A stretch of 64,000 nt of DNA from Patescibacteria group bacterium (GCA_023379265.1 JAMCUI010000009.1:36091-100090), one strand, 5' to 3'. Shown: positions 1,757 to 28,618, counted from the first letter of the stretch. The notes: a model not told the origin generated them from the letters alone. A program made the numbers and translations.

Positions 1757-3475
1757 ATGTCTCAAAATAAATTGAAAAACAGAAGTTATATGATGACCGG
1801 GATTCCCGGAGGTAAAGATTGGGCAAAGAGAGCGGCGGCCCGGGCAATGTTGCGGGCGGTCAATTTTAACGACCGCGATTTTGAGAAACCCATAATTACT
1901 GTAGCTTGTCCTTACACAAACGCTACCCCCTGTAATGCGCAAGTACAGGAATTGGGAGAAATAGTAAAAGATGAGATAGAAAAGGGTGGAGGAAAAGCTT
2001 TTATTTTTGGTACTCCTGTAGTCAGCGATGGTGAATCGATGGGTACTTCCGGGATGAAGTATTCTCTCGTTTCCCGTGAACTTATCGCAGATAGCATAGA
2101 GACAATGCACGAGTCATATATGGCTGACGGCATCATCACTCTTTCTGGGTGTGATAAGACTATTCCCGGGGCGCTTATGCCACTTGCGCGTAACAACAGT
2201 ATTGGTTTGACTCTTTACGGAGGAAGTATTTTGCCAGGAAGGTATAATGGGAAAGACTTGACAATTGTTAGTACTTTTGAGGCAATTGGGACTCACGCTG
2301 CGGGGAAAATGAGCGATTATGAATTTAGGCAGATAGAATGTCATTCCTGCCCGGGTGCTGGAGCCTGTGGCGGGATGTTTACTGCCAATACGATGTCAAG
2401 CGCTATTGAAGCCCTAGGTATGAGTCTGCCAGGCTCAGCTACAAATCTGGCAGTAGACCGCAAAAACAAAGTTTCTTCTGATAAAAAGGCTGACTGTAGA
2501 AATTCAGTCAGGGCACTTTTCAGTCTTATGGAAAAAGGAATAAGAGCAAGGGATATTATGACCAAAAAATCCTTTGAAAACGCGATTACAGTTGTTCTAT
2601 CTCTGGGCGGTTCAACCAACGCATATCTACATCTTTTAGCCTTGGCTCATGAAGCAGATGTTGATTTGACTCTTTCTGATTTTGACAGAATCGGAAAGAA
2701 AGTGCCGCTTTTGGGTAATTTCAAACCTTTTGGTGATTATGTTATGGAGAATTTGCATACCATTGGCGGAGTACAAATGGTTTTGAAAATGCTTTATGAA
2801 GCAGGACTTATTCACGGTGAATGTATGACAGTAACAGGAAAAACGGTAGAGGAAAATATCAGGTCGGCCCGGAAGCGACCCTCAAATCAGAAGATTGTTT
2901 ATAGTGTTGATAAACCTTTGGCGCCGCCTGACCATCACATTGTTGTCATGTATGGCAATATGGCGAAAGAGGGTGCAGTGATGAAACTTTCCGGCAAGGA
3001 GATGGAAATGCATCGGGGTCCTGCCAGAGTTTTTGAGAGGGAAGAGGATGCTCTTGATGCCATCCTCGCCGGTAAGATAAAAAAAGGAGACGTAATGGTG
3101 ATAAGATATGAAGGTCCAAAAGGCGGACCAGGCATGCGGGAGATGCTTTCTCCGTCTTCCGCTCTTATGGGAAGAGGTTTGGGAAAAGATGTTGCCCTTA
3201 TCACAGATGGACGTTTCTCAGGCGGTACTCACGGAATTATGATAGGACATGTATCACCAGAAGCAAAAGTCGGAGGGATAATTGCTTTGGTGAAAGAAGG
3301 GGATATGATAACTATAAACCTGAAAAAAAGGACCGTAGATTTGGATATAAGTAAAGATGAGATCGAGAAAAGAAGGAAGAATTGGAAAACTCCGGCAGAT
3401 AAATATAAAAGGGGAGTTTTGGCAAAATACGCAAAGCTGGTGGGAAGCGCGTCATTTGGAGCTGTTACAAGTTGA
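1757..3475 (+). CDS. ilvD: dihydroxy-acid dehydratase
   Basis: 572 aa, full-length ILVD/EDD family. Conserved [16 protein letters not shown] Fe-S cluster region and a C-terminal GxxSGG motif. Confidence 0.9.
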
Positions 3476-3487
3476 CCTTAAATACAT

Positions 3488-5215
3488 ATGAATACAAAAT
3501 TTCATAGATTAAAAGAGGGTGATAAAGTCCAGGGGGCAGAGATAGTCTGCGAGTGTCTGGTGCGCCAAGGGATAAAAATAATTTTCGGCTATCCCGGAGG
3601 AGCCAATATACCCATATATGATGCCCTTTACAGATACCCGTCACTTCATCATGTGCTGGTACGTCATGAGCAGGGTGCAGCGCACGCGGCTGAGGGTTAT
3701 GCCTGGGCAACGGGAAATGTCGGAGTATGTTTTACGACAAGCGGCCCCGGCGCAACAAATCTCGTGACTGGACTAGCTGATGCGATGCTTGATAGCGTTC
3801 CTTTAGTCTGTATTACCGGTCAGGTGCCATCAGGTCTAATTGGAACTGACGCTTTCCAGGAGACAGATGTAGTTGGAGTAACGCTTCCAGTGACAAAGCA
3901 TAATTATCTTATTACCCGTCCGGAGGAAATAGTATCAGTTATTCATGAAGCTTTTTATATTGCCAGTCACGGCAGGCCCGGTCCGGTACTTATTGATATT
4001 GCCAAAGATGCACAGACAGGATATGCGGTTTTTCACTATCCCAGGCAACAGGATTATCTCAAAGAGAAAGTAAAAATGAAAGCAACAGATGATGAGGTGG
4101 TAAAGATTACCAATTTATTAAATAGTGCCCAGAAACCTCTTATCGTTGCAGGACACGGTATGCTTCTTTCAGGAGATGGGAAGACGCTCCTTGCTATTGC
4201 TGAAAAGCAGGATATTCCAGTTACATTGACACAACTCGGACTCTCTACTATACCGACAAACCACAGGCTTTATATGGGTATGCCGGGTATGCACGGAAAT
4301 GTGGCAGCAAATAGAGCGCCAAACCAATGTGATGTGCTTTTAGCTGTGGGAATGCGCTTTCATGACCGGGTTACGGGTGAGGTTGCAAATTATGCTCCAC
4401 AGGCAAAAATTATCCATATTGACATTGATCCCTCCGAAATTGGCAAAAATGTAAAACCTTACCTGGGTGTTGTTGGCGATGCTAAAACAGTTTTGGAACA
4501 GATACTTCCGCGACTCAAATCAAAGAAAAATCAGGAATGGCTTTCGCAGTTTACAGCCTGGAAAAATGAAGAAAAGGTCAAAGTTTTTGATAAAGAATTA
4601 AAATCAAAGAAATTAAAATCAGCTCAGGTAGTGGAAATGTTATCCGAGGAAACAAATAATAGCGCAACAATTGTAGCAGATGTCGGTCAAAACCAGATGT
4701 ATGCAGCTAGGTATTATTCATATAGGAGTTATAACAGTCATTTTACTTCAGGTGGATTGGGGACGATGGGTTTTGCTCTTCCTGCTGGTATGGGTGCCAA
4801 ATCAGGGGATCCTGAACGGGAAGTGTGGATTGTGATAGGGGATGGCGGAATACAGATGACTCTTCAGGAACTGGCGACAATTGTCCAGGAAAAGCTCGAT
4901 TTGAAAATAGCGCTTTTGAATAACAACTATTTGGGTATGGTACGCCAGTGGCAGGAACTTTTTTATAAAGGGAATTATTCAGAAGTGAAGCTGAAAAATC
5001 CCAATTTCCAGAAACTGTGTGAAGGTTTTGGCATCCCATCCCTCAAAGTGACAAATCAAAATGATGTGAGGAAAGCAATTCGGAAGGCCAGAAAAACAAA
5101 AGGGCCATATCTTGTGGAATTTATAGTTGAAGCCGAGGAGAATGTTTTCCCGATGATTCCAGCAGGTGCTGGACTGGATGGAATGATCGTGTGTAAAGAA
5201 GACATGAAGAAATAG
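3488..5215 (+). CDS. ilvB: acetolactate synthase large (catalytic) subunit
   Basis: 575 aa ThDP enzyme with N-terminal, central and C-terminal TPP domains (GDGGIQMTLQELAT ThDP-binding motif). Lies in the ilv operon. Confidence 0.9.
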   Translation: MNTKFHRLKEGDKVQGAEIVCECLVRQGIKIIFGYPGGANIPIYDALYRYPSLHHVLVRHEQGAAHAAEGYAWATGNVGVCFTTSGPGATNLVTGLADAMLDSVPLVCITGQVPSGLIGTDAFQETDVVGVTLPVTKHNYLITRPEEIVSVIHEAFYIASHGRPGPVLIDIAKDAQTGYAVFHYPRQQDYLKEKVKMKATDDEVVKITNLLNSAQKPLIVAGHGMLLSGDGKTLLAIAEKQDIPVTLTQLGLSTIPTNHRLYMGMPGMHGNVAANRAPNQCDVLLAVGMRFHDRVTGEVANYAPQAKIIHIDIDPSEIGKNVKPYLGVVGDAKTVLEQILPRLKSKKNQEWLSQFTAWKNEEKVKVFDKELKSKKLKSAQVVEMLSEETNNSATIVADVGQNQMYAARYYSYRSYNSHFTSGGLGTMGFALPAGMGAKSGDPEREVWIVIGDGGIQMTLQELATIVQEKLDLKIALLNNNYLGMVRQWQELFYKGNYSEVKLKNPNFQKLCEGFGIPSLKVTNQNDVRKAIRKARKTKGPYLVEFIVEAEENVFPMIPAGAGLDGMIVCKEDMKK

Positions 5216-5357
5216 TATTACAGATTGTGGGTGCAGGTGCTGGACTGGATGGAATGATCGTGTGTAAAGAAGACATGAAGAAATAGTATTACAGATTGTG
5301 GGTGCAGGTGCTGGACTGGATGGAATGATCGTGTGTAAAGAAGACATGAAGAAATAG
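5162..5357. repeat. 71-bp direct tandem repeat (about 2.75 copies) duplicating the last 54 nt of ilvB including its stop codon plus a 17-nt spacer
   Basis: The unit gcaggtgctggactggatggaatgatcgtgtgtaaagaagacatgaagaaatag + tattacagattgtgggt occurs at 5162-5232, 5233-5303 and (first 54 nt) 5304-5357 with perfect identity. Confidence 0.8.
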
Positions 5358-5398
5358 TCTAGAATTGATAATTATTATTGACAATTAGTTAAAACTAT

Positions 5399-5881
5399 AT
5401 GAGTAGAGATTTATCAAATATAATCATTTGGTCCAAAAACAAGCCGGGAGTTTTTTTCCGTATTCTTTGGCTTTTTAGGCGCAAGAGATTCAATATTGAA
5501 TCAGCTACAGTAGGACATACCGAAGTACCTGGTATCACCCGTTTTACCATAACCGTTACAGGAGACAAAGACCAGGTGAGGAATATGTGCAAGCAGGTGC
5601 ACAAGCTTATTGATATAGTCCGAGTGGAGGATGTGCCGGATGAAAAACTGGTTTCCCGCGAGCTTGCCATGATGAAAGTCGGGGTGAAGGATAAGGAGGA
5701 AAAAGCGGAAATTCTGCGCGTACTTGAACATTTCCGGGCAAGAGTGATGAATATGACTAAGGATTCCCTGGTAATCGAGGTGACGGGAAGCGAAGAAAAG
5801 ATAGACGCTTTTTATGAAAATATGAAGGATTTTCAAATTATTGAGTTTGTGCGGGCCGGAAGAACCGCATTATATAAATAA
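5399..5881 (+). CDS. ilvH: acetolactate synthase small (regulatory) subunit, ACT domain
   Basis: 160 aa. ACT-domain N-terminus (PGVFFRILWLFRRKRFNIES) and an ALS_ss_C-like C-terminus. Immediately downstream of ilvB. Confidence 0.85.
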   Translation: MSRDLSNIIIWSKNKPGVFFRILWLFRRKRFNIESATVGHTEVPGITRFTITVTGDKDQVRNMCKQVHKLIDIVRVEDVPDEKLVSRELAMMKVGVKDKEEKAEILRVLEHFRARVMNMTKDSLVIEVTGSEEKIDAFYENMKDFQIIEFVRAGRTALYK

Positions 5882-5891
5882 GGAGTTTTCT

Positions 5892-6947
5892 ATGGCAAAG
5901 ATGAAATTTGGTGATGTTACCGAAAGTGTAGTGACGAGGCAGGAGTTTCCGCTAGCCCGCGCCCGCCAAGTATTGAAAAATGAAACAGTCGCGGTACTTG
6001 GTTATGGCGTTCAGGGTCCGGCACAAGCGATGAATTTGCGAGATAACGGCATAAATGTGATTATCGGTCAACGGTCACCTTCATCTTCATGGGATAAGGC
6101 TATAAAGGATGGGTGGAAAAAAGGGAAAACCATCTTTTCTATTGAGGAAGCGGCAGAAAAAGGTACAATATTAGCCTATTTGCTTTCTGATGCCGGCCAG
6201 GTGGCACTGTGGCCGACAGTGAAAAAGTATCTGACTGCCGGCAAAGCACTCTATTTTTCCCACGGATTTGGTATCACCTACAGGAAATATACAAAGATTA
6301 TTCCTCCAAAAGATACAGACGTTATCCTTATAGCGCCTAAAGGAGCTGGAAGATCTGTAAGGCAGAATTTCCTTGCCGGAAGCGGAATAAATAGCAGTTT
6401 TGCCGTTTTCCAAGATGCCACAGGCCGGGCAAAAGAGAGAGTTATGGCAATGGGTATCGGTGTGGGATCAGGTTTTCTTTTTGAAACCACGTTTGAGAAA
6501 GAAGTCTATAGCGACTTGACTGGTGAACGTGGAGTACTTATGGGAGCGCTTGAAGGGATAATGGAGGCGCAGTTTAATGAATTCAGAAGACGAGGACACA
6601 CGCCGTCTGAAGCTTTTAACGAAACTGTGGAAGAGTTGACTCAAAGTCTTATCAGAATGGTTGCGGAAAACGGGATGGACTGGATGTATGCCAACTGTTC
6701 AACTACCGCTCAAAGAGGTGCTCTTGATTGGAAAGGAGAGTTTAGAGACGCTGTAGCTCCGGTTTTCAAGAGGCTCTATTCTTCTGTCAAAATCGGAAAA
6801 GAAGCACAACGAGTATTGAAGGCAAATTCAGCAAAAGATTATAGGAAAAAACTTGAAAAAGAATTGTCAGAAATGAGAAATATGGAGATGTGGAGGGCAG
6901 GCGCTACTGTAAGGTCTCTCCGTCCTGAAAATTGGAAGAAAAAATGA
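5892..6947 (+). CDS. ilvC: ketol-acid reductoisomerase (NADP+)
   Basis: About 351 aa from ATG 5892 (RBS aaggag). Rossmann motif VLGYGVQG and class I KARI architecture. The ORF-track start at 5841 is probably too far upstream. Confidence 0.9.
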   Translation: MAKMKFGDVTESVVTRQEFPLARARQVLKNETVAVLGYGVQGPAQAMNLRDNGINVIIGQRSPSSSWDKAIKDGWKKGKTIFSIEEAAEKGTILAYLLSDAGQVALWPTVKKYLTAGKALYFSHGFGITYRKYTKIIPPKDTDVILIAPKGAGRSVRQNFLAGSGINSSFAVFQDATGRAKERVMAMGIGVGSGFLFETTFEKEVYSDLTGERGVLMGALEGIMEAQFNEFRRRGHTPSEAFNETVEELTQSLIRMVAENGMDWMYANCSTTAQRGALDWKGEFRDAVAPVFKRLYSSVKIGKEAQRVLKANSAKDYRKKLEKELSEMRNMEMWRAGATVRSLRPENWKKK

Positions 6948-8809
6948 TATCAGATGACCACTTCTATCATATAGAATGTTTCCTCTGTCATAAAAAGGTT
7001 AACGAAAAAGAAAATACTACCGTTTGCAGAAGTTGCGGCGGGCCTCTTGACGTTGTCTACGATTATTCAAAGCTAAAAGATGGAATGAATTTCTATGTGA
7101 TGCAAAATACCCCTCCTAAAACAATAAAATATCTTGATTTTTACCCTATAATTGATAGGAATAATTTAAGCTCGCTTGGTGAGGGGGGGACACAGCTCCA
7201 TAATTTGCCAAAACTTGGCAGTAAGTTAGGACTTTCCAGACTTTATCTGAAAAATGAAGGTCTCAATCCCACTGGAGCTTTTAAGGATAGAGGGAGTTTT
7301 GTAGAAATAAATAAGGCAAAAGAATTGGGTTTTAAGAGTGTTTGTGTTGCTTCAACCGGGAATATGGCAGCGTCTGTAGCGGCATATTCTGCTCAGGCAG
7401 GCTTGGAATGTTATGTGTTTGTGCCTGAAAATACTCCTCGCGGCAAATTAGCTCAGGCCATTTCTTATGGAGCGAGGGTAATCCAGGTGCGCGGTACTTA
7501 CTCTGATGCTTTTAATCTTACAGTAAAAGTTGCGGCTGAATTCGGTTATTACCTGGCTGGAGATTATGCTTTCAGAGGTGAAGGTCAGAAATCACTGGCA
7601 TTTGAAGTCTGCGAGCAGATGTGGTTTGGTAAAATTGATTGGGTAATAGTGCCTGTGGGAATGGGAACAAACTTATCTTATATTTGGAAAGGATTTAAGG
7701 AATATTTTGAGTTTGGTCTTATTTCCCAACTCCCGAAAATGGTGGCTGTTCAGGCGGAGGGAGCATCAACAATAGTAACAGCTTTTAGAACTCACTCTGA
7801 GATAAAGCCATTGGATAAACCCCAAACTATATGTTCTGCTATTGCCTGCGGAATGCCAATTGATTATCCCAAGGTACTCAAAGCTCTGAAAGAATCACAC
7901 GGGACAGCTATAGCAGTATCAGATGATGAAACGCTTTCCGCTCAACAGACTCTTGCTAAGATGGAAGCGCTATATATAGAGCCTTCATCAGCTACTTCGA
8001 TTGTAGCGCTTCAAAGACTGGTAAAACAGAAGATTATAAAAGAAAATGATGTAGTGGTTTGTGTGGCAACTGGAGCAGGTTTGAAAGATCCTGCTACAAC
8101 TCTCAAAGTCTTGGCTGATCCCCCCACTATCGAGCCGACACTTTCTGAAGCCTTAAAAGTGATAAAAAGCGGCATTCTGTCCCTTCGGGCAGGAGGAGTA
8201 GGTGATAAAGAAAAAGTTTTGTTTACCAGAGTACCCGGGGAGATCGAGTTGAAAAAAGTCATAAAGCATGAATTCAGACTGGAATTGGATATAGAATCGC
8301 TAAAAATAATCAAAAAAGTGATCAGTAAGTTTATTACCGTAAAAGGGAAAAATATCGTAAAAGCTGATCTTCAGTCAATAATAGAGACTATCATGCAGGA
8401 CGAGAGAAGAAAAAAGACACTGGACGTTTTGGATTTCAGAATCGAGACTTCCAAAAGAAATAAACCCAGGGCATATGTCAAAATTAGTCTGGACGGCCAC
8501 GAATTTGAAAACGAAAGCGAAGGAGTAGGACCAGTAGACGCAGCAATAAACGCAATATCCTCAATTATCAAACGCAAAAATGGAGGGGAATTCCGTCTTA
8601 CCGATTTTAACGTAGAGATACCCACAACAGGAAGCGATGCTACTGTAGAAGCAAGTATGGTCTTACAGCATGAGAATGGAACTCAAGTAATTGAGAAAGG
8701 TACATCTCCTGATATTATCGTGGCATCGATAGAAGCGTTTGAAAAAGGTTATAATGAGCTAGCATATCAGTTGAAAGAGCAATCTAAAAATAGCGCGAAG
8801 AAATCTTGA
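6932..8809 (+). CDS. threonine-synthase-like PLP enzyme (N-terminal zinc ribbon) fused to a C-terminal LeuA-dimer-type allosteric domain; possible 2-oxobutanoate-forming enzyme for Ile synthesis
   Basis: CxxC...CxxC ribbon at N-terminus. PLP-lysine motif LNPTGAFKDRG, typical of ThrC rather than IlvA (FKxRGA). The last ~100 aa align with the C-terminal regulatory domain of the LeuA encoded in this same window (EGVGPVDAAINAI vs [12 protein letters not shown]; GSDATVEASMV vs [11 protein letters not shown]; DIIVASIEAF vs [10 protein letters not shown]). Confidence 0.6.
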   Translation: MEEKMISDDHFYHIECFLCHKKVNEKENTTVCRSCGGPLDVVYDYSKLKDGMNFYVMQNTPPKTIKYLDFYPIIDRNNLSSLGEGGTQLHNLPKLGSKLGLSRLYLKNEGLNPTGAFKDRGSFVEINKAKELGFKSVCVASTGNMAASVAAYSAQAGLECYVFVPENTPRGKLAQAISYGARVIQVRGTYSDAFNLTVKVAAEFGYYLAGDYAFRGEGQKSLAFEVCEQMWFGKIDWVIVPVGMGTNLSYIWKGFKEYFEFGLISQLPKMVAVQAEGASTIVTAFRTHSEIKPLDKPQTICSAIACGMPIDYPKVLKALKESHGTAIAVSDDETLSAQQTLAKMEALYIEPSSATSIVALQRLVKQKIIKENDVVVCVATGAGLKDPATTLKVLADPPTIEPTLSEALKVIKSGILSLRAGGVGDKEKVLFTRVPGEIELKKVIKHEFRLELDIESLKIIKKVISKFITVKGKNIVKADLQSIIETIMQDERRKKTLDVLDFRIETSKRNKPRAYVKISLDGHEFENESEGVGPVDAAINAISSIIKRKNGGEFRLTDFNVEIPTTGSDATVEASMVLQHENGTQVIEKGTSPDIIVASIEAFEKGYNELAYQLKEQSKNSAKKS

Positions 8810-8845
8810 TGGTGAATATAAACTTTATTATAAGAAGGTACCATT

Positions 8846-8953
8846 ATAAAAATTGAAGTTGATACCAAGAAGGCTCCAGAATTAACGTTTTATCAAATAA
8901 ACTTTTAAGGAGGAAAGTGCTATGAAAATTGAAGTTGATACCAAGAAGGCTCC
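8846..8953 (+). repeat. degenerate ~50-bp direct duplication of the ridA RBS plus first 10 codons, placed 75 bp upstream of the real start
   Basis: aaaattgaagttgataccaagaaggctcc occurs at 8850-8877 and 8925-8952. The upstream copy has ATA in place of ATG and taagaagg in place of taaggagg. Confidence 0.6.
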
Positions 8954-9350
8954 GGCGGCAATAGGACCATATTCACAAGCCATCAAGCTGGGTAATCTGG
9001 TTTTTTGTGCTGGAAATATAGGAGTGGATCCAAAAACAAACATATTAAGCGATAAAGGGATAAAAGAACAGACGAAACTTGCTTTAGAGAATATAAAGAA
9101 CATTCTTTCTTCAGCCGGTTCTGGTATGGAAAACGTGTTGAAGACAACTGTTTATCTGAAAAGCATGGATGATTTTGCCTCTATGAATGAAGTTTATGCC
9201 ACTTTTTTTTCCAAGCCGTATCCGGCACGTGCAACTATTGCTGTGGCTAAATTGCCAAAGGATGCTTTAGTTGAGATAGAATGTATAGCTTTTACAAAAG
9301 ATAAGAAAGGAGAATGTTGCGGCGAGGGCGATTGCGGCTGCTGCGACTAA
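8922..9350 (+). CDS. ridA: RidA/YjgF-family reactive enamine/imine deaminase with a C-terminal Cys-rich tail
   Basis: 142 aa with YjgF/TdcF signatures (AIGPYSQA..., ...ARATIAV). Strong RBS aaggagg. Unusual C-terminal extension KKGECCGEGDCGCCD. Confidence 0.8.
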   Translation: MKIEVDTKKAPAAIGPYSQAIKLGNLVFCAGNIGVDPKTNILSDKGIKEQTKLALENIKNILSSAGSGMENVLKTTVYLKSMDDFASMNEVYATFFSKPYPARATIAVAKLPKDALVEIECIAFTKDKKGECCGEGDCGCCD

Positions 9351-9356
9351 AATAAT

Positions 9357-10280
9357 ATGGCTGAGTCAAAAACTTTCCCTTTTGCTTTTTTTGAGGGGAA
9401 AATAATTCCTACTGAGCTTGCACGGGTTAACATCATGACCAATGCTCTTCAGTACGGCAACGGTATTTTTGGCGGTATAAGGGGGTATGTGGCCGAGGGT
9501 AAAAAATCTGTAAATATTTTTAGAGTGAACGACCACTATAAAAGATTTTTAAGTTCCCTGAAAATTTTAAATAAGTCTATTCGATATAGCCAGAGATACC
9601 TTATTGACATCACAGTAGAACTGGCAAAAAAAAACAATCCTAGAACCGATTGTTACTTCCGTCCATTTGCTTATGCCAAGAATTTTGAGATTTCACCTGA
9701 TTTAAGTAAGCTGGAATTTGATTTTGCCATGTATATGATTCCTCTGGGAGAGTATTTACCAGTGAGTAAGGGTTTGAAGTTGGCTATCTCCAATTGGGTC
9801 AGGATAAATGACAATATGATTCCTTCCCGGGCTAAAGTGACGGGAGGGTATATCAATTCTTCCCTAGCTAAAGGAGATGCAGCAAAACTGGGTTGTGATG
9901 ACGCTCTTATGCTTTCTTCCGACGGTCATTTGGCTGAGGGAAGTGGGGCAAATTTCTTTATGATAAGGGACGGGGTACTTATAACAAGCCCAAAATATAA
10001 TGATGTCCTTGAAGGTATAACCAGAAGAACTATTTTAGAGTTGGCGGGTGAATTAAAGATTTCTATAGAGGAAAGAGAAATAGACAGGACTGAAGTTTAT
10101 ATAGCTGATGAAGCTTTCCTCTCAGGGACCGGAGCTCAAGTCGCTTGGATTACAGAGGTTGACGGACGGACAATAGGGGAAGGGAAAATGGGGCCAATTA
10201 CGGGGAAAATTCAAAAACTTTTTTTTGATATTGTCCGTGGTAAGGATAAGAAATATGCCGGTTGGCTGACAAAAATATAA
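9357..10280 (+). CDS. ilvE: branched-chain amino acid aminotransferase (class IV PLP)
   Basis: 307 aa, fold-type IV aminotransferase (EAFLSGTGAQV, catalytic-Lys region). Last biosynthetic gene of the ilv operon. Confidence 0.85.
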   Translation: MAESKTFPFAFFEGKIIPTELARVNIMTNALQYGNGIFGGIRGYVAEGKKSVNIFRVNDHYKRFLSSLKILNKSIRYSQRYLIDITVELAKKNNPRTDCYFRPFAYAKNFEISPDLSKLEFDFAMYMIPLGEYLPVSKGLKLAISNWVRINDNMIPSRAKVTGGYINSSLAKGDAAKLGCDDALMLSSDGHLAEGSGANFFMIRDGVLITSPKYNDVLEGITRRTILELAGELKISIEEREIDRTEVYIADEAFLSGTGAQVAWITEVDGRTIGEGKMGPITGKIQKLFFDIVRGKDKKYAGWLTKI

Positions 10281-10625: not shown

Positions 10626-11699
10626 TTAGATATATGAGACTATTTTATCACCTGTCTCTTTTGTGCCCAAGATTTTATTTTCAGGCGTATTTTTGTCTTT
10701 TATATCGGGAGTGCGGTAGCCTGATTTGATAAATTTCTCAATAGCTTTTTCTACGATTTTTGCCTCGTCTCCCATCCGGAAACTAATCCTTAACATCATT
10801 ACTATAGAAAGGATGGTAGCCAGGGGGTTTGCAGTATTTTTTCCTGCCGCTTTATTGTAGGCACCATGGATTGGTTCAAATAGGGAATATTTTTTTCCTA
10901 TTGAAGCTGACGGAAGAAGGCCGATAGATCCGCTTATAACCGATGCTTCGTCAGTAAGGATATCCCCAAACATATTTTCTGTCAAAATGACATCAAATTG
11001 TGCCGGATTTTTAATAATTTGCATGGCGGCATTATCGACAAACATATGATTTAGTATTACTGATGGAAAACTTCGGGCAACTTTTTCCACAGTTTCCCGC
11101 CACAATCTTGATGTCTCAAGTACATTGGCTTTATCAACGCTCGTGACTCTTTTTTGGCGTTTTTGTGCAAGATTAAAGGCTACATTAGCAATATTTATGA
11201 CTTCTTCTTTTGAATAAATTGACGTGTCAACGGCAATATTCCCCTTATTTTTTCGCAACCTTGGTTGGCCGAAATAGATACCTCCAGTAAGTTCCCTAAC
11301 AACAACCATATCAACTCCTTCTACTCTTTCTTTTTTGAGCGGTGAGATTTCTGATAAGTTTTTAAATAGTATAATTGGACGGATGTTAGCAAAAAGTTCA
11401 AGAGATTTGCGCAATTTCAAAAGTCCCTGTTCGGGTCTTATTTTTGCTTCAGGGTTGTTGTCATATTTTGGATCTCCAATTGCGCCAAAAAGCACAGCAT
11501 CGGAACTTTTACAGAGTTTCAGAGTTTCAGATGGGAGCGGGCCGCCAGTCTTATCTATGGCAATACTACCTATAAGGCCTTCCTGAAAGATAAACTGGTG
11601 ATTGAATTTCTCTCCGACTTTTTTCAAGACTTTTACCGCTTCCCAGGTTACCTCCGGGCCTACACCGTCTCCAGCTAATAATGCAATTTTCTTTTTCAT
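10626..11699 (-). CDS. leuB: 3-isopropylmalate dehydrogenase
   Basis: 357 aa. N-terminal LLAGDGVGPEV and an isocitrate/IPM dehydrogenase fold. Last gene of the minus-strand leu operon. Confidence 0.9.
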   Translation of the reverse strand: MKKKIALLAGDGVGPEVTWEAVKVLKKVGEKFNHQFIFQEGLIGSIAIDKTGGPLPSETLKLCKSSDAVLFGAIGDPKYDNNPEAKIRPEQGLLKLRKSLELFANIRPIILFKNLSEISPLKKERVEGVDMVVVRELTGGIYFGQPRLRKNKGNIAVDTSIYSKEEVINIANVAFNLAQKRQKRVTSVDKANVLETSRLWRETVEKVARSFPSVILNHMFVDNAAMQIIKNPAQFDVILTENMFGDILTDEASVISGSIGLLPSASIGKKYSLFEPIHGAYNKAAGKNTANPLATILSIVMMLRISFRMGDEAKIVEKAIEKFIKSGYRTPDIKDKNTPENKILGTKETGDKIVSYI

Positions 11700-13597
11700 A
11701 GGTAAATTCTGGGATCAACTATCTTACCCGCGATTGCAGCAGCGGTGACTGTGACCGGTGAGGCCAGAAAAATCTTGGCTTCGCGGGAACCCATTCTGCC
11801 GATATAATTTCTGTTTGACGAAGATATCATTTGCGCTCCGGCTCCGACAACTCCCATGTGTTTACCAAAACATGGTCCACAGTTGGATGATTCGATATTG
11901 GCTCCGGCATCGGCAAAAAGCGTCAGTATGCCGTCTTTTAGCAGTCTGTTATAAACTTTTCTTGAGGCAGGTATTACTACAAAGTTTACCTGAGGATTTA
12001 CCTTCCTGTCTTTTATTACCTTTGCCGCCACCACAAAATCTTCATACCGGCCATTTGTGCAGGCTCCCAAAAAAGCATCTGTTATGTGAAGAGAATTGAC
12101 TCCGGCAAAATCCACATTTTTTGATTTTTGGGATTTACGCATATACTGATCTAGTTTACTTACAGGTGTGACATTTCCCGGTTTATGGGGGAATGCCACC
12201 ATCGGTTCAAGAGAGGATAAATCAATATTGATAATTTTTTCATAATTGCAGTTCCTATCAGGCATATAAGCTTTATAGGGATATTTGGCTCTTTTATCAA
12301 TATATTTTTTTAATATTTTGTCACACTCAAAAATTGCCGTCCTTGCCCCCATTTCAACAGCCATATTTGCTACAGTGGTTCTGGCATCCATGGAGAGAGA
12401 GGAGAGCGCTGGGCCACCAAACTCGACTATTCTTCTTGATGCTCCATCCACTCCCAATTTACCTATTAAATAAAGAATAATATCTTTGGAAAATGTACCC
12501 TTGCCAAGTTTCCCGTGAAGATTTACCCTGATTGTTTTTGGTACTTCAAAATCGTAGAGATATCCTGTGGGTAGAGCGAAACTTGCATCAGTGGTGCCGA
12601 CACCAAAAGCCAAGGTGTTTAGGGCTCCGCTGGTGTCAGTGTGCGAGTCCGTGCCCAGAATAATTTCTCCGGGAACGATTTGGCCATCTTCTATAAGGAC
12701 GACATGTTCTATCCCATCTCCCTCCTTGTAGCATTTGATCCCCTGATTTTTGGCAAACTTCTCCATAAAATCTATTCCTTCAGAAACTGCAACTGATGAG
12801 GAGGGGACAGTATGGTCTGGGATAAGAAATACTCTTTTTTTATCAAATACATGGAATTTCTTTTTGTTTTTTGCATATATGTCGGAGAAATTGGATAAAC
12901 TGTCATTTAGTGCTGGAGGTGCAATGACTTCATTGAAAAAAAGGATATCTATGGATAATTTTTCCAGCTTATCGCCTGCAGAAGCATCATATCCCAGATG
13001 GTCTGAAATTATTTTTTCGGCAATAGTCTTCGGTTTGGACGATTTTATATTTGTTCTGACAAAATCAATCTTCTTCCTGTCGGCTTTTTTCAATAATTCG
13101 GATAGATGATTTCTGATTCTTCCGATTTTTCCTCCAAGAATAAATGTTTTGGCTACCTCTTCATCCATTTTGAATCCAACTTTTTTTCTGCCGTTTATCT
13201 TTATTTCCTTTTTCTCAAGATTAATCGCAAGCCGATCCGATTTGTGAAATTGGATAATATCGTCCATTGTGATTAAGACAAGTCCGTTATTCAGACAGTT
13301 ACGGAAAAATATATCAGGATACGATTTGGCAATGATTGCTTTTACACCGTTTTCCTGCAACGCATAGACTGCCTGTTCTCGGGATGAGCCGCACCCAAAA
13401 TTTTCACCGGCTACAATTATGTTATTGTTCTCTTTATTGTTGAGGTTTACAAAATCTTTGTCATAATTGGCAAAAGCATATTTGGCAAAAAAAGACCGCT
13501 TTGTAGATTCCTGAAGTGTCCAAGCAGGAATTATATCATCAGTATTTATGTCGTCAGGAAAGATGGAAGTAATTTTCCCGGAAATATCGGTAATCAT
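11696..13597 (-). CDS. leuDC: 3-isopropylmalate dehydratase, single-chain fusion with small-subunit (LeuD) domain N-terminal and large-subunit (LeuC) domain C-terminal
   Basis: N-terminal ~180 aa carry LeuD motifs (IIVAGENFGCGSSREQAVYAL, IFFRNC). The remainder carries LeuC motifs (GTDSHTDTSGALN, SSNCGPCFGK, SSSNRNYIGRMG). Start set at the internal ATG 13597, 1 nt after the leuA stop; the ORF-track start 13621 would overlap leuA by 23 nt. Confidence 0.8.
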   Translation of the reverse strand: MITDISGKITSIFPDDINTDDIIPAWTLQESTKRSFFAKYAFANYDKDFVNLNNKENNNIIVAGENFGCGSSREQAVYALQENGVKAIIAKSYPDIFFRNCLNNGLVLITMDDIIQFHKSDRLAINLEKKEIKINGRKKVGFKMDEEVAKTFILGGKIGRIRNHLSELLKKADRKKIDFVRTNIKSSKPKTIAEKIISDHLGYDASAGDKLEKLSIDILFFNEVIAPPALNDSLSNFSDIYAKNKKKFHVFDKKRVFLIPDHTVPSSSVAVSEGIDFMEKFAKNQGIKCYKEGDGIEHVVLIEDGQIVPGEIILGTDSHTDTSGALNTLAFGVGTTDASFALPTGYLYDFEVPKTIRVNLHGKLGKGTFSKDIILYLIGKLGVDGASRRIVEFGGPALSSLSMDARTTVANMAVEMGARTAIFECDKILKKYIDKRAKYPYKAYMPDRNCNYEKIINIDLSSLEPMVAFPHKPGNVTPVSKLDQYMRKSQKSKNVDFAGVNSLHITDAFLGACTNGRYEDFVVAAKVIKDRKVNPQVNFVVIPASRKVYNRLLKDGILTLFADAGANIESSNCGPCFGKHMGVVGAGAQMISSSNRNYIGRMGSREAKIFLASPVTVTAAAIAGKIVDPRIYL

Positions 13598-13598
13598 A

Positions 13599-15110
13599 TC
13601 AGTGAATCTTATTAACAGCATCTATATAAGCCATTGCTGCAGCGACTATGGTGTCGGTGTGAATTCCTGAACCGAAAGATTCCTTTTTGCCGTTTTGCAC
13701 TCCCACGTATACTTTAGCCATGGCGTTTGATCCTATTGTGGCGGCCTGGATAAGAAATTGCGTCAGTTTGTGATTTTGACCGAGACAAGTGTCTATGGCA
13801 TTAAAACTGGCATCTATTGGGCCGTCACCGGTACCTGTAGCTTCCTTATTTTTTCCATCGACTGACAACCTTACGGTTGAAGTGGGAATATTTTTATTCC
13901 CTGAAATTGTTTGGATGAGCACGAGTTTTATTTTTTTGTGGTTTGTTTCATCTTTTTGGCCCATAAGATAATATAGATCCTCGTCATAAATTTCTTTTTT
14001 GATGTCAGCAAGTTTCAAAAATTCCTTATAGACAGAGTTCAATTTATCCTGTGTCAGATCAAAACCTATTTTTTCCAGCTTGTGACGAAGTGCTGCACGG
14101 CCTGATCGGGCTGTGAGAATAATTTTTGAAGAAGTCAATCCTACAGCCCTTGGGTCAATTATTTCGTAATTTTCCCTTCTTTTCAGTACTCCGTCTTGGT
14201 GTATTCCTGATGAATGGGAAAAAGCGTTGGCTCCGATTATGGCCTTATTCGGTTGGACAGGAATGCCCATAATCTGCGAAACCATCTGGCTGGTTTTGTA
14301 AATTTCGCCGGTCTTAATTCTTGTTGTATAAGACAGATAATCGCGTCGTGTGTAAAGCGCCATGATTACTTCCTCAAGTGAGGTATTTCCTGCTCTTTCG
14401 CCAATTCCGTTCATTGTTACCTCTACCTGTCTTGCTCCGTTAAAAACACCAAACAAAGTGTTGGCTGTAGCTACACCCAGATCATTATGACAATGTACAG
14501 AAATGATGGCTTTATCAATATTGGGTACATTTTTGGTGATATATTTTATTTTTTGGCCAAATTCTTCGGGAAAACAATAACCAGTGGTATCGGGAATATT
14601 GACGACTGTTGCTCCTGCAGTTATTACCTTCATAATCATTTCCGAAAGAAATTTATTATCTGCGCGTCCGGCATCTTCAGCATAAAATTCCACGTCAGAA
14701 ACAAATTTTTTGGCATACCGGACAGCCTCAATCGCCCTTTCTAGTATATCTTTTCGGTTTGATTTGAATTTGTACTTTATATGGACATCTGAGACACCGA
14801 TTCCGGTATGTATCCGGGGACTTTGTGCGTATTTAAGCGCTTTGGCGGCGCATTCTATATCTTCTTTTATGGCACGAGTCAGGCCGCAGACGGTACAGTT
14901 TCTGACTATTTTTGAGACAGCCACGATTGATTCAAAATCCCCAGGTGAAGAGATAGGAAATCCTGCTTCAATTATGTCCACTCCCAACTTTTCTAATTGT
15001 CTGGCCAATTCAACTTTTTGGGAAGTGTTCAATTTAGCCCCAGGTGACTGTTCGCCGTCACGCAGTGTTGTGTCAAAGACAAAGATTTTATTTTTCATGA
15101 AGTTTATCAA
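13599..15110 (-). CDS. leuA: 2-isopropylmalate synthase (or citramalate synthase) with C-terminal LeuA-dimer regulatory domain
   Basis: HMGL-like TIM barrel ([20 protein letters not shown]) plus a C-terminal allosteric domain ([14 protein letters not shown]). Start is TTG 15110 or ATG 15098. Confidence 0.85.
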
Positions 15111-25812: not shown

Positions 25813-27327
25813 ATGGCCACTATAAACCGTAAAATCTCAGCTTGCATGGCCACGCAGCATCCGGATAATGCTGCGAGGCCTTACTGGAATCCAAGGCCTT
25901 TTATATCAACAAGCGCTGAGATAAAAGAAAGTTACCTGAATTTTTCTGATCTTTCTATAGATGAGTATAATTGGGATTGGGAAGGGAAATTTGTGGATGA
26001 GGCGGTCATAGATAAGCTTCTGCACCGTTATTTCAATTACTTCCAAAAACACCCGATAGGGAAGGACAAACTTCTTACATTCAGGATTCCAAATCCCAGA
26101 GTGGAAAAGCAATTTAGGTTGGCTAGGGCTTTTATGGTAATTATCACGAGCAGCCAGCTGGCTCGGAGTCTGGGTTTTTCTTCACCACCAATTTTTGAAA
26201 CAATTCTTCCTTTGACGGAAACCGCAGAAGAAATCGCAGAGATTCAGGAAGCTTTCAAAGACTTGATTAGTGTAAATCACAGGCTTTTGAACATGAAGGA
26301 CTCGTTGCAATATTTGGAAATAATCCCTCTTTTTGAACAAGTGGGTAAGATTGCCGGGTCTGCCGGAATTCTGAAAAAATATATAGCATTGCACAAAAAG
26401 ATGTTTGGGTACAAACCCAAATATATAAGGCCTTATTGTGCAAGGAGCGACCCGGCGCTAAACTCTGGGCTTATACCGACGATATTATCTCTAAAAGTAG
26501 CATTATCCTCCTACTTGAAGCTGGAAGAGGATACTGATGTGAGGCTTTTTCCTATGTTGGGAACAGGTTCGTTGCCGTTTAGAGGAGGACTTAGTCCTGA
26601 CAGATTGGATATTGCATTATCTGAATATGCTGGAGTACGCACGTTGACTATACAAAGCGCTTTCAGATACGACTATCCCAAACACGATGTGAAACTTGCC
26701 ATTGAGAGGCTGAATAACGAATTGCATCATAGAAAAGCAAAGCGACTGGATAAGACAAGTGTAGACGTCATACAAAGAACCATTCCTCTTTTTGAGAAGC
26801 CCTACAGGAATTCGATAGAACAGGCAGCAGGAATGATAAATGTTTTAAGCAGGCAAGTAGCCAAAAGAAGAGAAAGGATGCTTCATATAGGACTCTTCGG
26901 ATACTCAAGAGGCGTTGGTCATGTTAGTTTGCCGAGAGCTATTCCGTTTACAGCGTCCTTATATTCATTGGGTGTGCCTCCTGAATTGATAGGGACAGGA
27001 AGAGGTATAAAAGAGGCAAAGAAAAAAGGCTTATGGGAAAAATCTTCACAGTATTATCTTCATATTAAAGAAGACTTGCTTCATGCAGGTAATTTCCTGA
27101 ATAAGCAGAATTTATCCCGTCTTGCAAAGCACAGTTCCTTCTGGTATGACGTAGAAGAAGATGTTAAAGAGATCGAAAAAGAATTGGGAATAGTACTTGG
27201 TCCTGGTAATTCCACACAGCTAGAACATTACAATCTTGTGGAAAAAATTTATAAGAAGATTATGGAAGGTAATGATGTTTCAAAACTGATTACTTACGGC
27301 GGTTTATTGAGGCAAAGTTTGGGTTGA
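25813..27327 (+). CDS. archaeal-type phosphoenolpyruvate carboxylase (PepcA family)
   Basis: 504 aa, begins MATINRKISACMATQHPDNA. This matches the characteristic N-terminal MxTQHPDN signature and size (~500-540 aa) of atPEPC, which is unrelated in length to bacterial Ppc (~900 aa). Confidence 0.65.
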   Translation: MATINRKISACMATQHPDNAARPYWNPRPFISTSAEIKESYLNFSDLSIDEYNWDWEGKFVDEAVIDKLLHRYFNYFQKHPIGKDKLLTFRIPNPRVEKQFRLARAFMVIITSSQLARSLGFSSPPIFETILPLTETAEEIAEIQEAFKDLISVNHRLLNMKDSLQYLEIIPLFEQVGKIAGSAGILKKYIALHKKMFGYKPKYIRPYCARSDPALNSGLIPTILSLKVALSSYLKLEEDTDVRLFPMLGTGSLPFRGGLSPDRLDIALSEYAGVRTLTIQSAFRYDYPKHDVKLAIERLNNELHHRKAKRLDKTSVDVIQRTIPLFEKPYRNSIEQAAGMINVLSRQVAKRRERMLHIGLFGYSRGVGHVSLPRAIPFTASLYSLGVPPELIGTGRGIKEAKKKGLWEKSSQYYLHIKEDLLHAGNFLNKQNLSRLAKHSSFWYDVEEDVKEIEKELGIVLGPGNSTQLEHYNLVEKIYKKIMEGNDVSKLITYGGLLRQSLG

Positions 27328-27421
27328 GATAAATTATGGCTTGGGTGTAGGAGTAGTTTCGTATATAATTGGTAGAGATTATCAAAGACCTGCTTTTTAT
27401 AAAATAAAAGGAGGAATAAAT

Positions 27422-28618
27422 ATGAAAAAAGTCTCTGTCTCAAAAAGGGCAGCAAATACGCCCGCTTCTGCCATAAGAAAACTGGTGCCTTTGGCTGACG
27501 CAGCAAAAAAAAGAGGCATTAAAGTTTACCATGTGAATATAGGCCAACCTGACCTACCAACCCCTGATCCAATACTTTCGGCAATAAGGCATTTTAAGGA
27601 ATCTACTATAGAATATGCTCCATCAACTGGTGTATATGAGACTATGGAGGCATGGAAAAAGTTTTATAGTGATAAGGGAATAAAATTTGATGCCTCTGAC
27701 ATACTGGTGACAAGTGGAGGTTCGGAAGGTCTGATTTTCGCCTTTCTTACAGTGGCAGATCCGGGGGATGAATTAATAGTCTTTGAGCCTTTTTATACGA
27801 GCTACGCCATAATTGCTGCAATGGGCAATATAAAGTTGAAAGCAGTTAGGACAAAGGTGGAAGACGGTTTTCATCTTCCGCCTAAAGCAGCAATTGAGAA
27901 AGCAATTACATCAAGAACTAAAGGGATTGTAGTGTGCAATCCGAATAATCCTACCGGTACTCTCTATACGGATGCGGAAGTGAAAATGATTGCAGAGTTG
28001 GCTCTTAAACACAATCTTTTTATCATTTCTGACGAAACCTATCAGGAGTTAGTCTTTGATGGGAAAAAAGTATTGCCGTTTGCCTCATTTCCCAAACTTG
28101 CAAACCAGTTGGTTGTGACGGATAGCGTTTCTAAACGTTTTAATAGCTGTGGAGTGAGGATAGGTTGTGTCGTGAGTAAGAATAAGGAAGTAATGCAGTC
28201 AATTTTAAGGTTTGCCCAGGGAAGATTGTCTGTAGCCACAGTCGAGCAGATGGCTCTTATCCCTATGCTGTTAAATCATAAGCCTTATGTCGCCAAGATA
28301 AGGAAACTTTATGAGAGTAGAAGGGATACGGTGGTGCGTGAGCTGAAAAGAATTCCAGGCGTGACAGCCGTCGCGCCCGAAGGAGCTTTTTATATAATTC
28401 CCAAGCTTCCTATAAAAGATAGTGATGACTTTGCATCATACCTTCTTAGTGATTTTTCTGATCGGAAAGAGACGGTTATGGTGGCGCCAGCAACAGGTTT
28501 CTATGCTACACCTGGGTTGGGTAGCAACGAGATTAGAATTGCCTATGTGTTAGAGGAAAAGAAGCTTGAAAGGGCAATAGAGTTATTGGGTTTGGCAATC
28601 AAAAAATACAACCGTTAA
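27422..28618 (+). CDS. aspC: aspartate aminotransferase (class I/II PLP aminotransferase)
   Basis: Start ATG 27422 with RBS aaaggagga. Aminotransferase class I motifs include SVSKRFNSCGVRIG (PLP-Lys region). The ORF-track start 27341 is upstream extension. Confidence 0.8.
   Translation: MKKVSVSKRAANTPASAIRKLVPLADAAKKRGIKVYHVNIGQPDLPTPDPILSAIRHFKESTIEYAPSTGVYETMEAWKKFYSDKGIKFDASDILVTSGGSEGLIFAFLTVADPGDELIVFEPFYTSYAIIAAMGNIKLKAVRTKVEDGFHLPPKAAIEKAITSRTKGIVVCNPNNPTGTLYTDAEVKMIAELALKHNLFIISDETYQELVFDGKKVLPFASFPKLANQLVVTDSVSKRFNSCGVRIGCVVSKNKEVMQSILRFAQGRLSVATVEQMALIPMLLNHKPYVAKIRKLYESRRDTVVRELKRIPGVTAVAPEGAFYIIPKLPIKDSDDFASYLLSDFSDRKETVMVAPATGFYATPGLGSNEIRIAYVLEEKKLERAIELLGLAIKKYNR

Follow-up and report, generated by a model that had tools for sequence, protein, structure and literature searches.

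Which enzyme supplies 2-oxobutanoate to an isoleucine operon that carries no gene for threonine dehydratase (IlvA)? The question is raised by a 64,000-nt stretch of DNA from a Patescibacteria group bacterium (GCA_023379265.1, JAMCUI010000009.1:36091-100090; hereafter the window), in which a gene at 6944..8809 on the plus strand (hereafter the fusion) is placed between ilvC and ridA-ilvE. The gene encodes 621 aa plus a stop codon, comprising a zinc ribbon, a pyridoxal 5'-phosphate (PLP) dependent core resembling threonine synthase (ThrC), a LeuA linker and a LeuA_dimer domain. A first-pass annotation made from the sequence alone had taken the product for a ThrC-derived enzyme that makes 2-oxobutanoate, from threonine or directly from O-phosphohomoserine (OPH), under feedback by isoleucine or leucine. 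The gene context, the pairing with RidA, the altered phosphate pocket, the canonical ThrC of NC10 genomes and the CimA-like effector pocket described below appear to point toward that functional proposal, and we consider it probable that the fusion is a ThrC-derived, isoleucine-controlled, 2-oxobutanoate-forming enzyme that replaces IlvA, with threonine as its probable substrate and OPH as a less probable one.

The fusion had been listed as an open reading frame (ORF) at 6932..8809 on the plus strand, starting at the TTG at 6932 and encoding 625 aa. The ORF is present in the window and the architecture assigned to its product stands, but the length does not, as the true start is likely the ATG at 6944, giving 621 aa. 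This start is favored by the 100% identity of the 621-aa product with a database protein of the same length from a Patescibacteria metagenome-assembled genome (P0001), and by the overlap of the ATG with the stop codon of ilvC as ATGA, which is a customary sign of translational coupling.

All parts of the gene lie on its plus strand. The Cys4 zinc ribbon (6971..7048, aa 10-35) gives weak Pfam matches to zinc-ribbon families, and its four cysteines (C12, C15, C28 and C31), recognized already in the first-pass annotation, are nearly always present across the fusion family. The fold-type II PLP catalytic domain of ThrC lineage (7172..8074) coincides with the PALP match at aa 77-377 (E = 2.8e-76) and holds the PLP lysine K114 (7283-7285) within the motif NPTGAFKDRG (aa 108-117). 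Further downstream are a linker region (8174..8353, aa 411-470), homologous to the linker subdomain ahead of the LeuA regulatory domain, and the LeuA_dimer (PF08502) allosteric domain itself (8354..8761, aa 471-606; E = 7.4e-29, 100.7 bits against a cutoff of 24.9). Both Pfam matches fall close to where such a scan had been expected to place them (PALP at ~70-400 and LeuA_dimer at ~480-610), and the LeuA-type C-terminus, which a profile search might have dismissed, was recovered by it. The scan returns neither an ACT-domain nor an HMGL-like match in the protein, the N-terminal partner of LeuA_dimer being PALP.

By profile and structure matches, the core of the fusion is a member of the ThrC family and lies outside the IlvA/TdcB catalytic family, as its ThrC-form lysine motif had indicated. 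The NCBIfam model for ThrC (TIGR00260) scores the fusion at 244.8 bits (cutoff 167.1), compared with 107.6 bits against a cutoff of 378.75 for ilvA_1Cterm and 69.1 bits against 411.3 for ilvA_2Cterm. The nearest solved structures are the class-I ThrCs of Aquifex, Bacillus, Mycobacterium and Thermus (E = 9e-81 to 8e-66, 38-43% identity). An AlphaFold2 (AF2) model of the fusion, built on 62 family members, has a predicted local distance difference test (pLDDT) score of 86.2 and a predicted template modeling (pTM) score of 0.73, and a Foldseek search with this model places ThrC structures at the top (TM ~0.86 on target), with IlvA, TdcB and serine racemase far lower. At the other end of the protein, the LeuA models of NCBIfam align from aa 419-422 to the C-terminus, and aa 411-606 match aa 316-501 of the LeuA encoded in the window (27% identity, E = 2.7e-10, tblastn), which bears out the resemblance to the window leuA product seen earlier. 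As this alignment spans aa 411-606, the LeuA linker subdomain was apparently acquired together with the regulatory domain.

The combination of PALP and LeuA_dimer is shared by more than 100 protein clusters at the 90% identity level, down to 48% identity to the fusion, and about 15 full-length fusions, down to 36% identity, are found among 1.84 billion representatives of clusters at 50% identity. A scan with one genome per species detects a relative of the fusion in at least 447 species genomes; the genome-scan loci inspected are the best 80 of these 447, and all 80 carry a full-length fusion. Hosts within the candidate phyla radiation (CPR) are Gottesman-, Woese-, Dojka-, Peregrini-/Peri- and Gracilibacteria, and those beyond CPR include many NC10/Methylomirabilota, Ca. 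Methylomirabilis oxygeniifera among them, and one Baltobacteraceae genome. The databases always annotate these proteins as "threonine synthase" or hypothetical. A frameshift join or a chimeric thrC-leuA contig, against which the first-pass annotation had cautioned, can be dismissed with near certainty, since an unbroken ORF of this kind recurs in more than 100 clusters, at least 80 independent species genomes and several phyla and the architecture is conserved without interruption across hundreds of genomes; an artefact is also contradicted by the confidence of the AF2 model over both halves and by the family-wide conservation of residues in the C-terminal module.

To compare catalytic domains, 59-62 fusions were aligned with 11 canonical ThrCs (four structurally characterized, six zinc-ribbon and one NC10). 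Between the 11 canonical ThrCs and 59 fusions, a strict switch is seen at no more than nine positions of the catalytic domain, namely T88M, A113P, F134Y, N154G, S155D, deletion of N157, T166S, G190T and T239S in Thermus thermophilus numbering. T88, found in 11/11 canonical enzymes, is methionine in 58/59 fusions, and N154G, S155D and the deletion of N157 each occur in 59/59. The window protein has M141 (7364..7366) at the Thr88 position, turning STGNT into STGNM, and G206-D207-Y208 (7559..7567) at the canonical N154-S155-V156-N157 site, turning NSVN into the one residue shorter GDY. N188, invariant in canonical ThrCs, is replaced by M, C or V in the fusions, which retain K61, the PLP lysine (K114 in the window protein), and R160 (R211). 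All 11 canonical ThrCs keep T88, N154, S155, N157, R160 and N188.

T88, N154, S155, R160 and N188 of T. thermophilus ThrC are the residues that we take to bind the phosphate of OPH, and the corresponding residue types are found at those positions in the 1UIM sequence. The phosphate site was reportedly located by structures and kinetics of the T. thermophilus enzyme attributed to Omi in 2003 and Murakawa in 2011; the latter study is said to indicate that water adds at C-beta only while the released phosphate is kept in place, 2-oxobutanoate being formed otherwise. The residues that define the fused family thus seem to concentrate on the putative phosphate site, where one of them becomes an invariant Asp. 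Conserved phosphate ligands are a hallmark of ThrC, and of the five presumed ones only R160 remains in the fusion. Read in this light, the altered site favors threonine over OPH as the likely substrate, and Asp207, which neighbors the retained Arg211, may assume the acid/base role of the phosphate ion toward the beta-hydroxyl.

Gene context was surveyed with the window proteins as tblastn queries on all fetched fusion loci, whose flanks extend over 7-10 kb. Among the 54 loci not titled NC10, 38 have at least one ilv gene and 25 at least three; an ilv gene or ridA abuts the fusion on the same strand in 39, and ridA is in the flank of 25 and within 200 bp of the fusion in 17. The operon context of IlvA (ilvBNCDE plus ridA) is therefore that of the fusion in the window, and ilv genes recur in the 38 loci just counted. 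Several Peregrinibacteria-type loci (L037, L043, L045 and L049) show the exact order fusion-ilvE-ilvD-ilvC-ilvB, which amounts to the full five-step pathway from threonine to isoleucine only if the fusion performs the IlvA step. The genes of five distant homologues (48-60% identity) are likewise all located among ilv genes.

Candidates for an alternative source of 2-oxobutanoate were not encountered in the same surroundings. Neither tblastn nor a PALP hidden Markov model (HMM) applied to all ORFs finds a second ThrC/IlvA-like fold-type II PLP gene within the 64-kb window, so that the cluster indeed lacks ilvA, as noted at the outset, and the PALP HMM finds no second fold-type II PLP gene in the flanks of any CPR fusion. 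Besides leuA, tblastn detects no other LeuA/CimA-like gene within the window. No hom gene is present anywhere in the 64 kb, and hom is next to the fusion in 0 of ~85 loci (NC10 contig L077 has hom-thrC 5 kb off); thrB was not searched for.

The next gene downstream is ridA, again as first described (8922..9350, plus strand; TIGR00004 166.9 bits, cutoff 106.25), and the encoded enamine/imine deaminase retains the Arg of the PAR motif. RidA hydrolyses the enamine or imine released by PLP-dependent dehydratases. A threonine-releasing synthase would not need it, and the pairing of the fusion with ridA therefore argues for enamine release; clustering of RidA genes with those of threonine dehydratases has been documented (PMC4433059). 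The association extends to two unfused proteins from the fusion subclade: P0135 (locus L007) has ridA 5 bp downstream and no ilv gene nearby, and P0161 is flanked by an HMGL-like gene on one side and an overlapping ridA on the other. The presence of ridA beside unfused members outside ilv operons suggests that RidA is paired with the enzyme itself and not merely with the ilv operon.

The HMGL-like neighbor of P0161, on a Joint Genome Institute (JGI) contig, encodes 410 aa without a LeuA_dimer domain, and the reading frames overlap. The position of P0161 beside a citramalate/isopropylmalate-type synthase devoid of the regulatory domain may bear on the origin of the fusion. The window RidA carries an odd Cys-rich tail (KGECCGEGDCGCCD) outside the Rid fold. 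A 33-nt direct repeat with 97% identity between its copies (8845-8877 and 8921-8953) occupies the fusion-ridA spacer and the start of ridA; the upstream copy corresponds to the ridA start and the next ten codons, lies 76 nt upstream and has ATA in place of ATG. In locus L001, a 218-aa ORF without a Pfam match (11825-12481) separates the fusion from ridA, within a mini-operon that consists only of ilvB, a 77-aa ORF, the fusion, the 218-aa ORF, ridA and the gene for an ATP-cone protein. A gap of similar size (685 bp), with no ORF called, lies between the fusion (end 4577) and ridA (start 5262) in locus L018.

The fusion loci titled NC10 present another arrangement: of 31, one has an ilv neighbor (a single ilvD), and none has three or more ilv genes, an abutting ilv gene or ridA, or ridA in the flank. 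On contig L077, the fusion (4747-6603) is accompanied 5 kb away by a canonical thrC directly downstream of hom, whose product contains the motifs NPTGSFKDRGM, CASTGNTSAS, LVNSVNPYR and PVGNAGN. NC10 genomes conserve this canonical ThrC of 354 aa, among them that of Ca. Methylomirabilis oxygeniifera (2.75-Mb contig), a lineage that also carries the fusion (L065 and L081). As the canonical hom-thrC is kept as well, the fusion is not the housekeeping ThrC of NC10. At several NC10 loci, we also observed immediately upstream of the fusion a second, non-canonical ThrC-like paralogue (L029 4656-5888, L036 1291-2559 and L022 1-585) with the motifs NPTGTIKDRS, STGNAGSS and PVAVGE, and a panE-like 2-dehydropantoate reductase gene downstream.

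The only solved structure that matches the C-terminal part of the fusion is 3F6G, the regulatory, isoleucine-binding domain of citramalate synthase (CimA, LiCMS) from Leptospira interrogans. The isoleucine pocket of LiCMS presumably comprises Y430, D431, L451, Y454, I458, T464, V468, P493 and Q495, residue types that we confirmed on the 3F6G sequence. The fusion equivalents are V531, D532, L552, F555, I559, S564, V568, P589 and I591, of which V531, D532, I559, V568 and P589 are conserved in 58-59 of 59 fusions. I559, V568 and P589 agree with CimA, whereas the window LeuA has A, A and T there. This pocket suggests that the LeuA_dimer module is functional and has isoleucine as its effector. Feedback by a branched-chain amino acid (BCAA) would be sensible only on a pathway-committed step, which fits an isoleucine-committed enzyme.

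The mechanism that we propose begins with the PLP core, which would form an external aldimine with an amino acid, most likely L-threonine and less likely O-phospho-L-homoserine. Elimination of the beta-hydroxyl (or of the gamma-phosphate) would give PLP-bound aminocrotonate, to be released as 2-aminocrotonate/2-iminobutanoate, which the co-encoded RidA would hydrolyse to 2-oxobutanoate and ammonia. IlvBN, IlvC, IlvD and IlvE of the same operon would then turn 2-oxobutanoate into isoleucine. The linker and LeuA_dimer, derived from a LeuA/CimA-type synthase, would offer a pocket at the dimer interface to a BCAA, most likely isoleucine, whose binding would feedback-inhibit the enzyme, the LeuA_dimer module taking the place of the ACT-like domains of IlvA. 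Deamination of threonine to 2-oxobutanoate is a side activity of canonical ThrCs (PMC12172450).

In a neighbor-joining (NJ) tree, the proteins that carry the STGN-M/GDY/R signature form a monophyletic clade of 34 representatives, sister to canonical ThrC (bootstrap ~70/100), with TIGR00260 scores of 187-254 bits versus ~337 for canonical zinc-ribbon ThrC. One part of the clade contains all fusions and six interspersed unfused proteins, and the other consists of short unfused archaeal proteins from Methanocella and DPANN. The fused forms are not monophyletic in this tree, which implies domain loss or repeated gain. The archaeal members at L088, L089 and L090 (Methanocella, Nano-, Woese- and Aenigmarchaeota) are encoded by stand-alone genes without ridA or ilv neighbors, and this subclade may serve another role than the fused form. 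A separate set of ThrC-like proteins (P0147, P0175, P0179, P0198, P0210, P0214, P0232 and P0255) of ~470-500 aa has an extra C-terminal ~110-120 aa; the PLP lysine is replaced in them by I, L, N or M, and they are probably not PLP enzymes.

That the fusion might instead be a true threonine synthase, sitting in an ilv operon and tuned by BCAAs while an ilvA or cimA at another genomic location provides 2-oxobutanoate, is in our view unlikely. Placement among ilv genes would be explained by threonine being the precursor of isoleucine, and such an enzyme would suit the above-cutoff TIGR00260 score, nearest structures that are all ThrC, the kept PLP lysine and R160, a naming shared by every database and archaeal signature-clade members that could be housekeeping ThrCs. 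It would, however, have to operate with three to four of the five presumed phosphate ligands replaced, one by Asp, invariantly in the family, and it never adjoins hom (thrB lying outside the search) in loci that include NC10 genomes retaining a separate canonical hom-thrC. The RidA pairing would be without rationale and the five-gene operons would miss the IlvA step; moreover, isoleucine or leucine feedback on the sole threonine route would be expected to starve protein synthesis of threonine.

Direct formation of 2-oxobutanoate from OPH by beta,gamma-elimination, which would bypass free threonine and remain under isoleucine feedback, is a variant of our main proposal and likewise unlikely, though slightly less so than a true threonine synthase. 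The weakened phosphate site would here let the phosphate leave before it assists water addition, much as ThrC reportedly gives 2-oxobutanoate if the site fails to retain phosphate. The evidence from context, RidA and regulation applies equally to such a phospho-lyase, K61 and R160 are kept, and the hom pathway of NC10 leads toward OPH; yet the invariant Asp and the Met in the pocket should disfavor a dianionic phosphate ester, hom is missing near the gene (with thrB not covered by the search) and the unfused relatives paired solely with ridA look catabolic. To our knowledge, CPR and DPANN hosts are generally without aspartate-family biosynthesis, which likewise counts against this route. We consider it quite improbable that the enzyme acts on another substrate altogether, by converting serine to pyruvate, by gamma-elimination from homoserine or O-acyl-homoserine, by acting on a sulfur amino acid or by a beta-replacement of the cysteate synthase or MetM type, although this is less improbable for NC10 and the archaeal subclade. 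The ThrC superfamily does hold many signature variants of unknown specificity, the hydrophobic Met and Tyr substitutions suit a non-phosphorylated leaving group, and the NC10 copies lie outside ilv operons; a 2026 GapMind preprint reports ThrC homologues such as MetM misannotated as ThrC, MetM being the only one mentioned. Set against these points are the five-gene ilv operons, which require a source of 2-oxobutanoate and not of pyruvate, the conserved and CimA-like pocket of LeuA/CimA type, and RidA, which implies enamine release and not replacement. At 72 bits, the fusion stays far below the cutoff of the cysteate synthase model (325), and we reject that assignment.

The reading that we prefer, a threonine-consuming replacement of IlvA under isoleucine control, faces evidence of its own to the contrary. 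The fusion passes the TIGR00260 cutoff, and the NC10 fusion also that of NF006050 (320.7 versus 303). K61 and R160 are retained, which would be compatible with phosphate binding, and the role of the phosphate-site residues is our assumption, partly checked on the 1UIM sequence. At the 31 NC10-titled loci the gene stands alone, essentially without ilv or ridA neighbors, and the absence of ilvA and cimA covers the 7-10 kb flanks and the 64-kb window only. Finally, the M/GDY/R signature would have to be regarded as compatible with ThrC activity if an archaeal protein bearing it were the sole ThrC of an organism that makes its own threonine, such as Methanocella; as far as we know, threonine synthesis is not expected in DPANN hosts.

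Compared with IlvA (EC 4.3.1.19), the fusion is likewise a fold-type II PLP enzyme with a C-terminal allosteric domain of BCAA type (its effector being predicted), occupies the first-enzyme position in ilv operons, is partnered by RidA and is proposed to yield 2-oxobutanoate via 2-aminocrotonate. Unlike IlvA, it has a catalytic domain of ThrC lineage, an N-terminal zinc ribbon and LeuA_dimer instead of one or more ACT-like subdomains. The threonine dehydratases known to date are of the types CTD, BTD1 and BTD2 (PMC3851459, PMC3901761). With class-I ThrC (EC 4.2.3.1; 1UIM, 2ZSJ, 6CGQ and 2D1F) the fusion has in common the fold and the PLP-lysine motif, and with canonical zinc-ribbon ThrCs (PRK08197 type) also the Cys4 zinc ribbon, but it differs in the extra module of ~230 aa, the rebuilt phosphate pocket, the ilv/ridA context and the lack of an adjoining hom. 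With CimA (3F6G/3F6H) and LeuA it shares the PF08502 domain and the preceding linker subdomain. Its pocket residues are conserved or conservatively exchanged and nearer to those of CimA than to those of the window LeuA, except that Y430 corresponds to Val, as in the LeuA motif GxGPVDA. In contrast to both, the regulatory domain of the fusion is attached to a PLP enzyme and not to an HMGL-like TIM-barrel synthase, the only architecture from which we know LeuA_dimer.

Two other ThrC homologues are linked to 2-oxobutanoate. Mammalian THNSL2 is a catabolic OPH phospho-lyase whose physiological product is 2-oxobutanoate; compared by description only, it differs from the fusion in belonging to another ThrC subfamily, in having no LeuA-type domain and in lacking a link to isoleucine synthesis. 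A moonlighting ThrC of Microcystis aeruginosa converts threonine to 2-oxobutanoate in vitro with sigmoidal kinetics and inhibition by isoleucine (PMC12172450). Unlike the fusion, this enzyme is cyanobacterial and still a threonine synthase, and neither a LeuA_dimer domain nor an ilv-operon context is reported for it (PMC12172450). In the literature searched we found no description of a ThrC-LeuA_dimer fusion or of its function.

Should the proposed function hold, hundreds of genomes of CPR/Patescibacteria, NC10 methanotrophs and possibly DPANN archaea would be misannotated, in that their "threonine synthase" would be the enzyme that had been missing at the start of isoleucine synthesis, and predictions of auxotrophy and prototrophy for unculturable organisms would change. 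The fusion would represent a non-orthologous replacement, in which ThrC was turned into a dehydratase that consumes its own former product through the rebuilding of one leaving-group pocket. The LeuA/CimA module would likewise be a portable sensor, one that a PLP enzyme acquired from a TIM-barrel synthase, and of interest for allostery, biosensors and pathway engineering. If OPH were the substrate, the branch point of the aspartate family in CPR and NC10 would be OPH instead of threonine, and the enzyme would constitute a previously unrecognized entry into isoleucine synthesis.

The remaining genes of the ilv cluster lie on the plus strand with the fusion: ilvD (dihydroxy-acid dehydratase, 1757..3475), ilvB (acetolactate synthase large subunit, 3488..5215), ilvN/ilvH (acetolactate synthase small subunit, 5399..5881) and ilvC (ketol-acid reductoisomerase, 5841..6947) upstream, and ilvE (branched-chain aminotransferase, 9357..10280) downstream of ridA. 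The listed start of ilvC is a TTG overlapping ilvN, and the real start is probably further downstream. A convergent leu operon follows on the minus strand (10626..15110), with leuA (13599-15110), a fused leuD-leuC (isopropylmalate isomerase, 641-aa ORF, 11696-13621) and leuB (10626-11699). In the fused ORF, the LeuD half is N-terminal and the LeuC half C-terminal; among related Gottesmanbacteria loci, leuD-leuC is fused in L012 and divided into two genes in L010 and L015-L017. No Rfam family, including tRNA, T-box and leader families, reaches its gathering score in the window (1-64000). The annotated part of the rest of the window consists of housekeeping genes. It also contains an archaeal-type phosphoenolpyruvate (PEP) carboxylase gene (25813-27327, plus strand; PF14010, E = 4.5e-131), directly followed by a class I/II aminotransferase gene (27341-28618, plus strand), and the pair could lead from PEP to aspartate in few steps.

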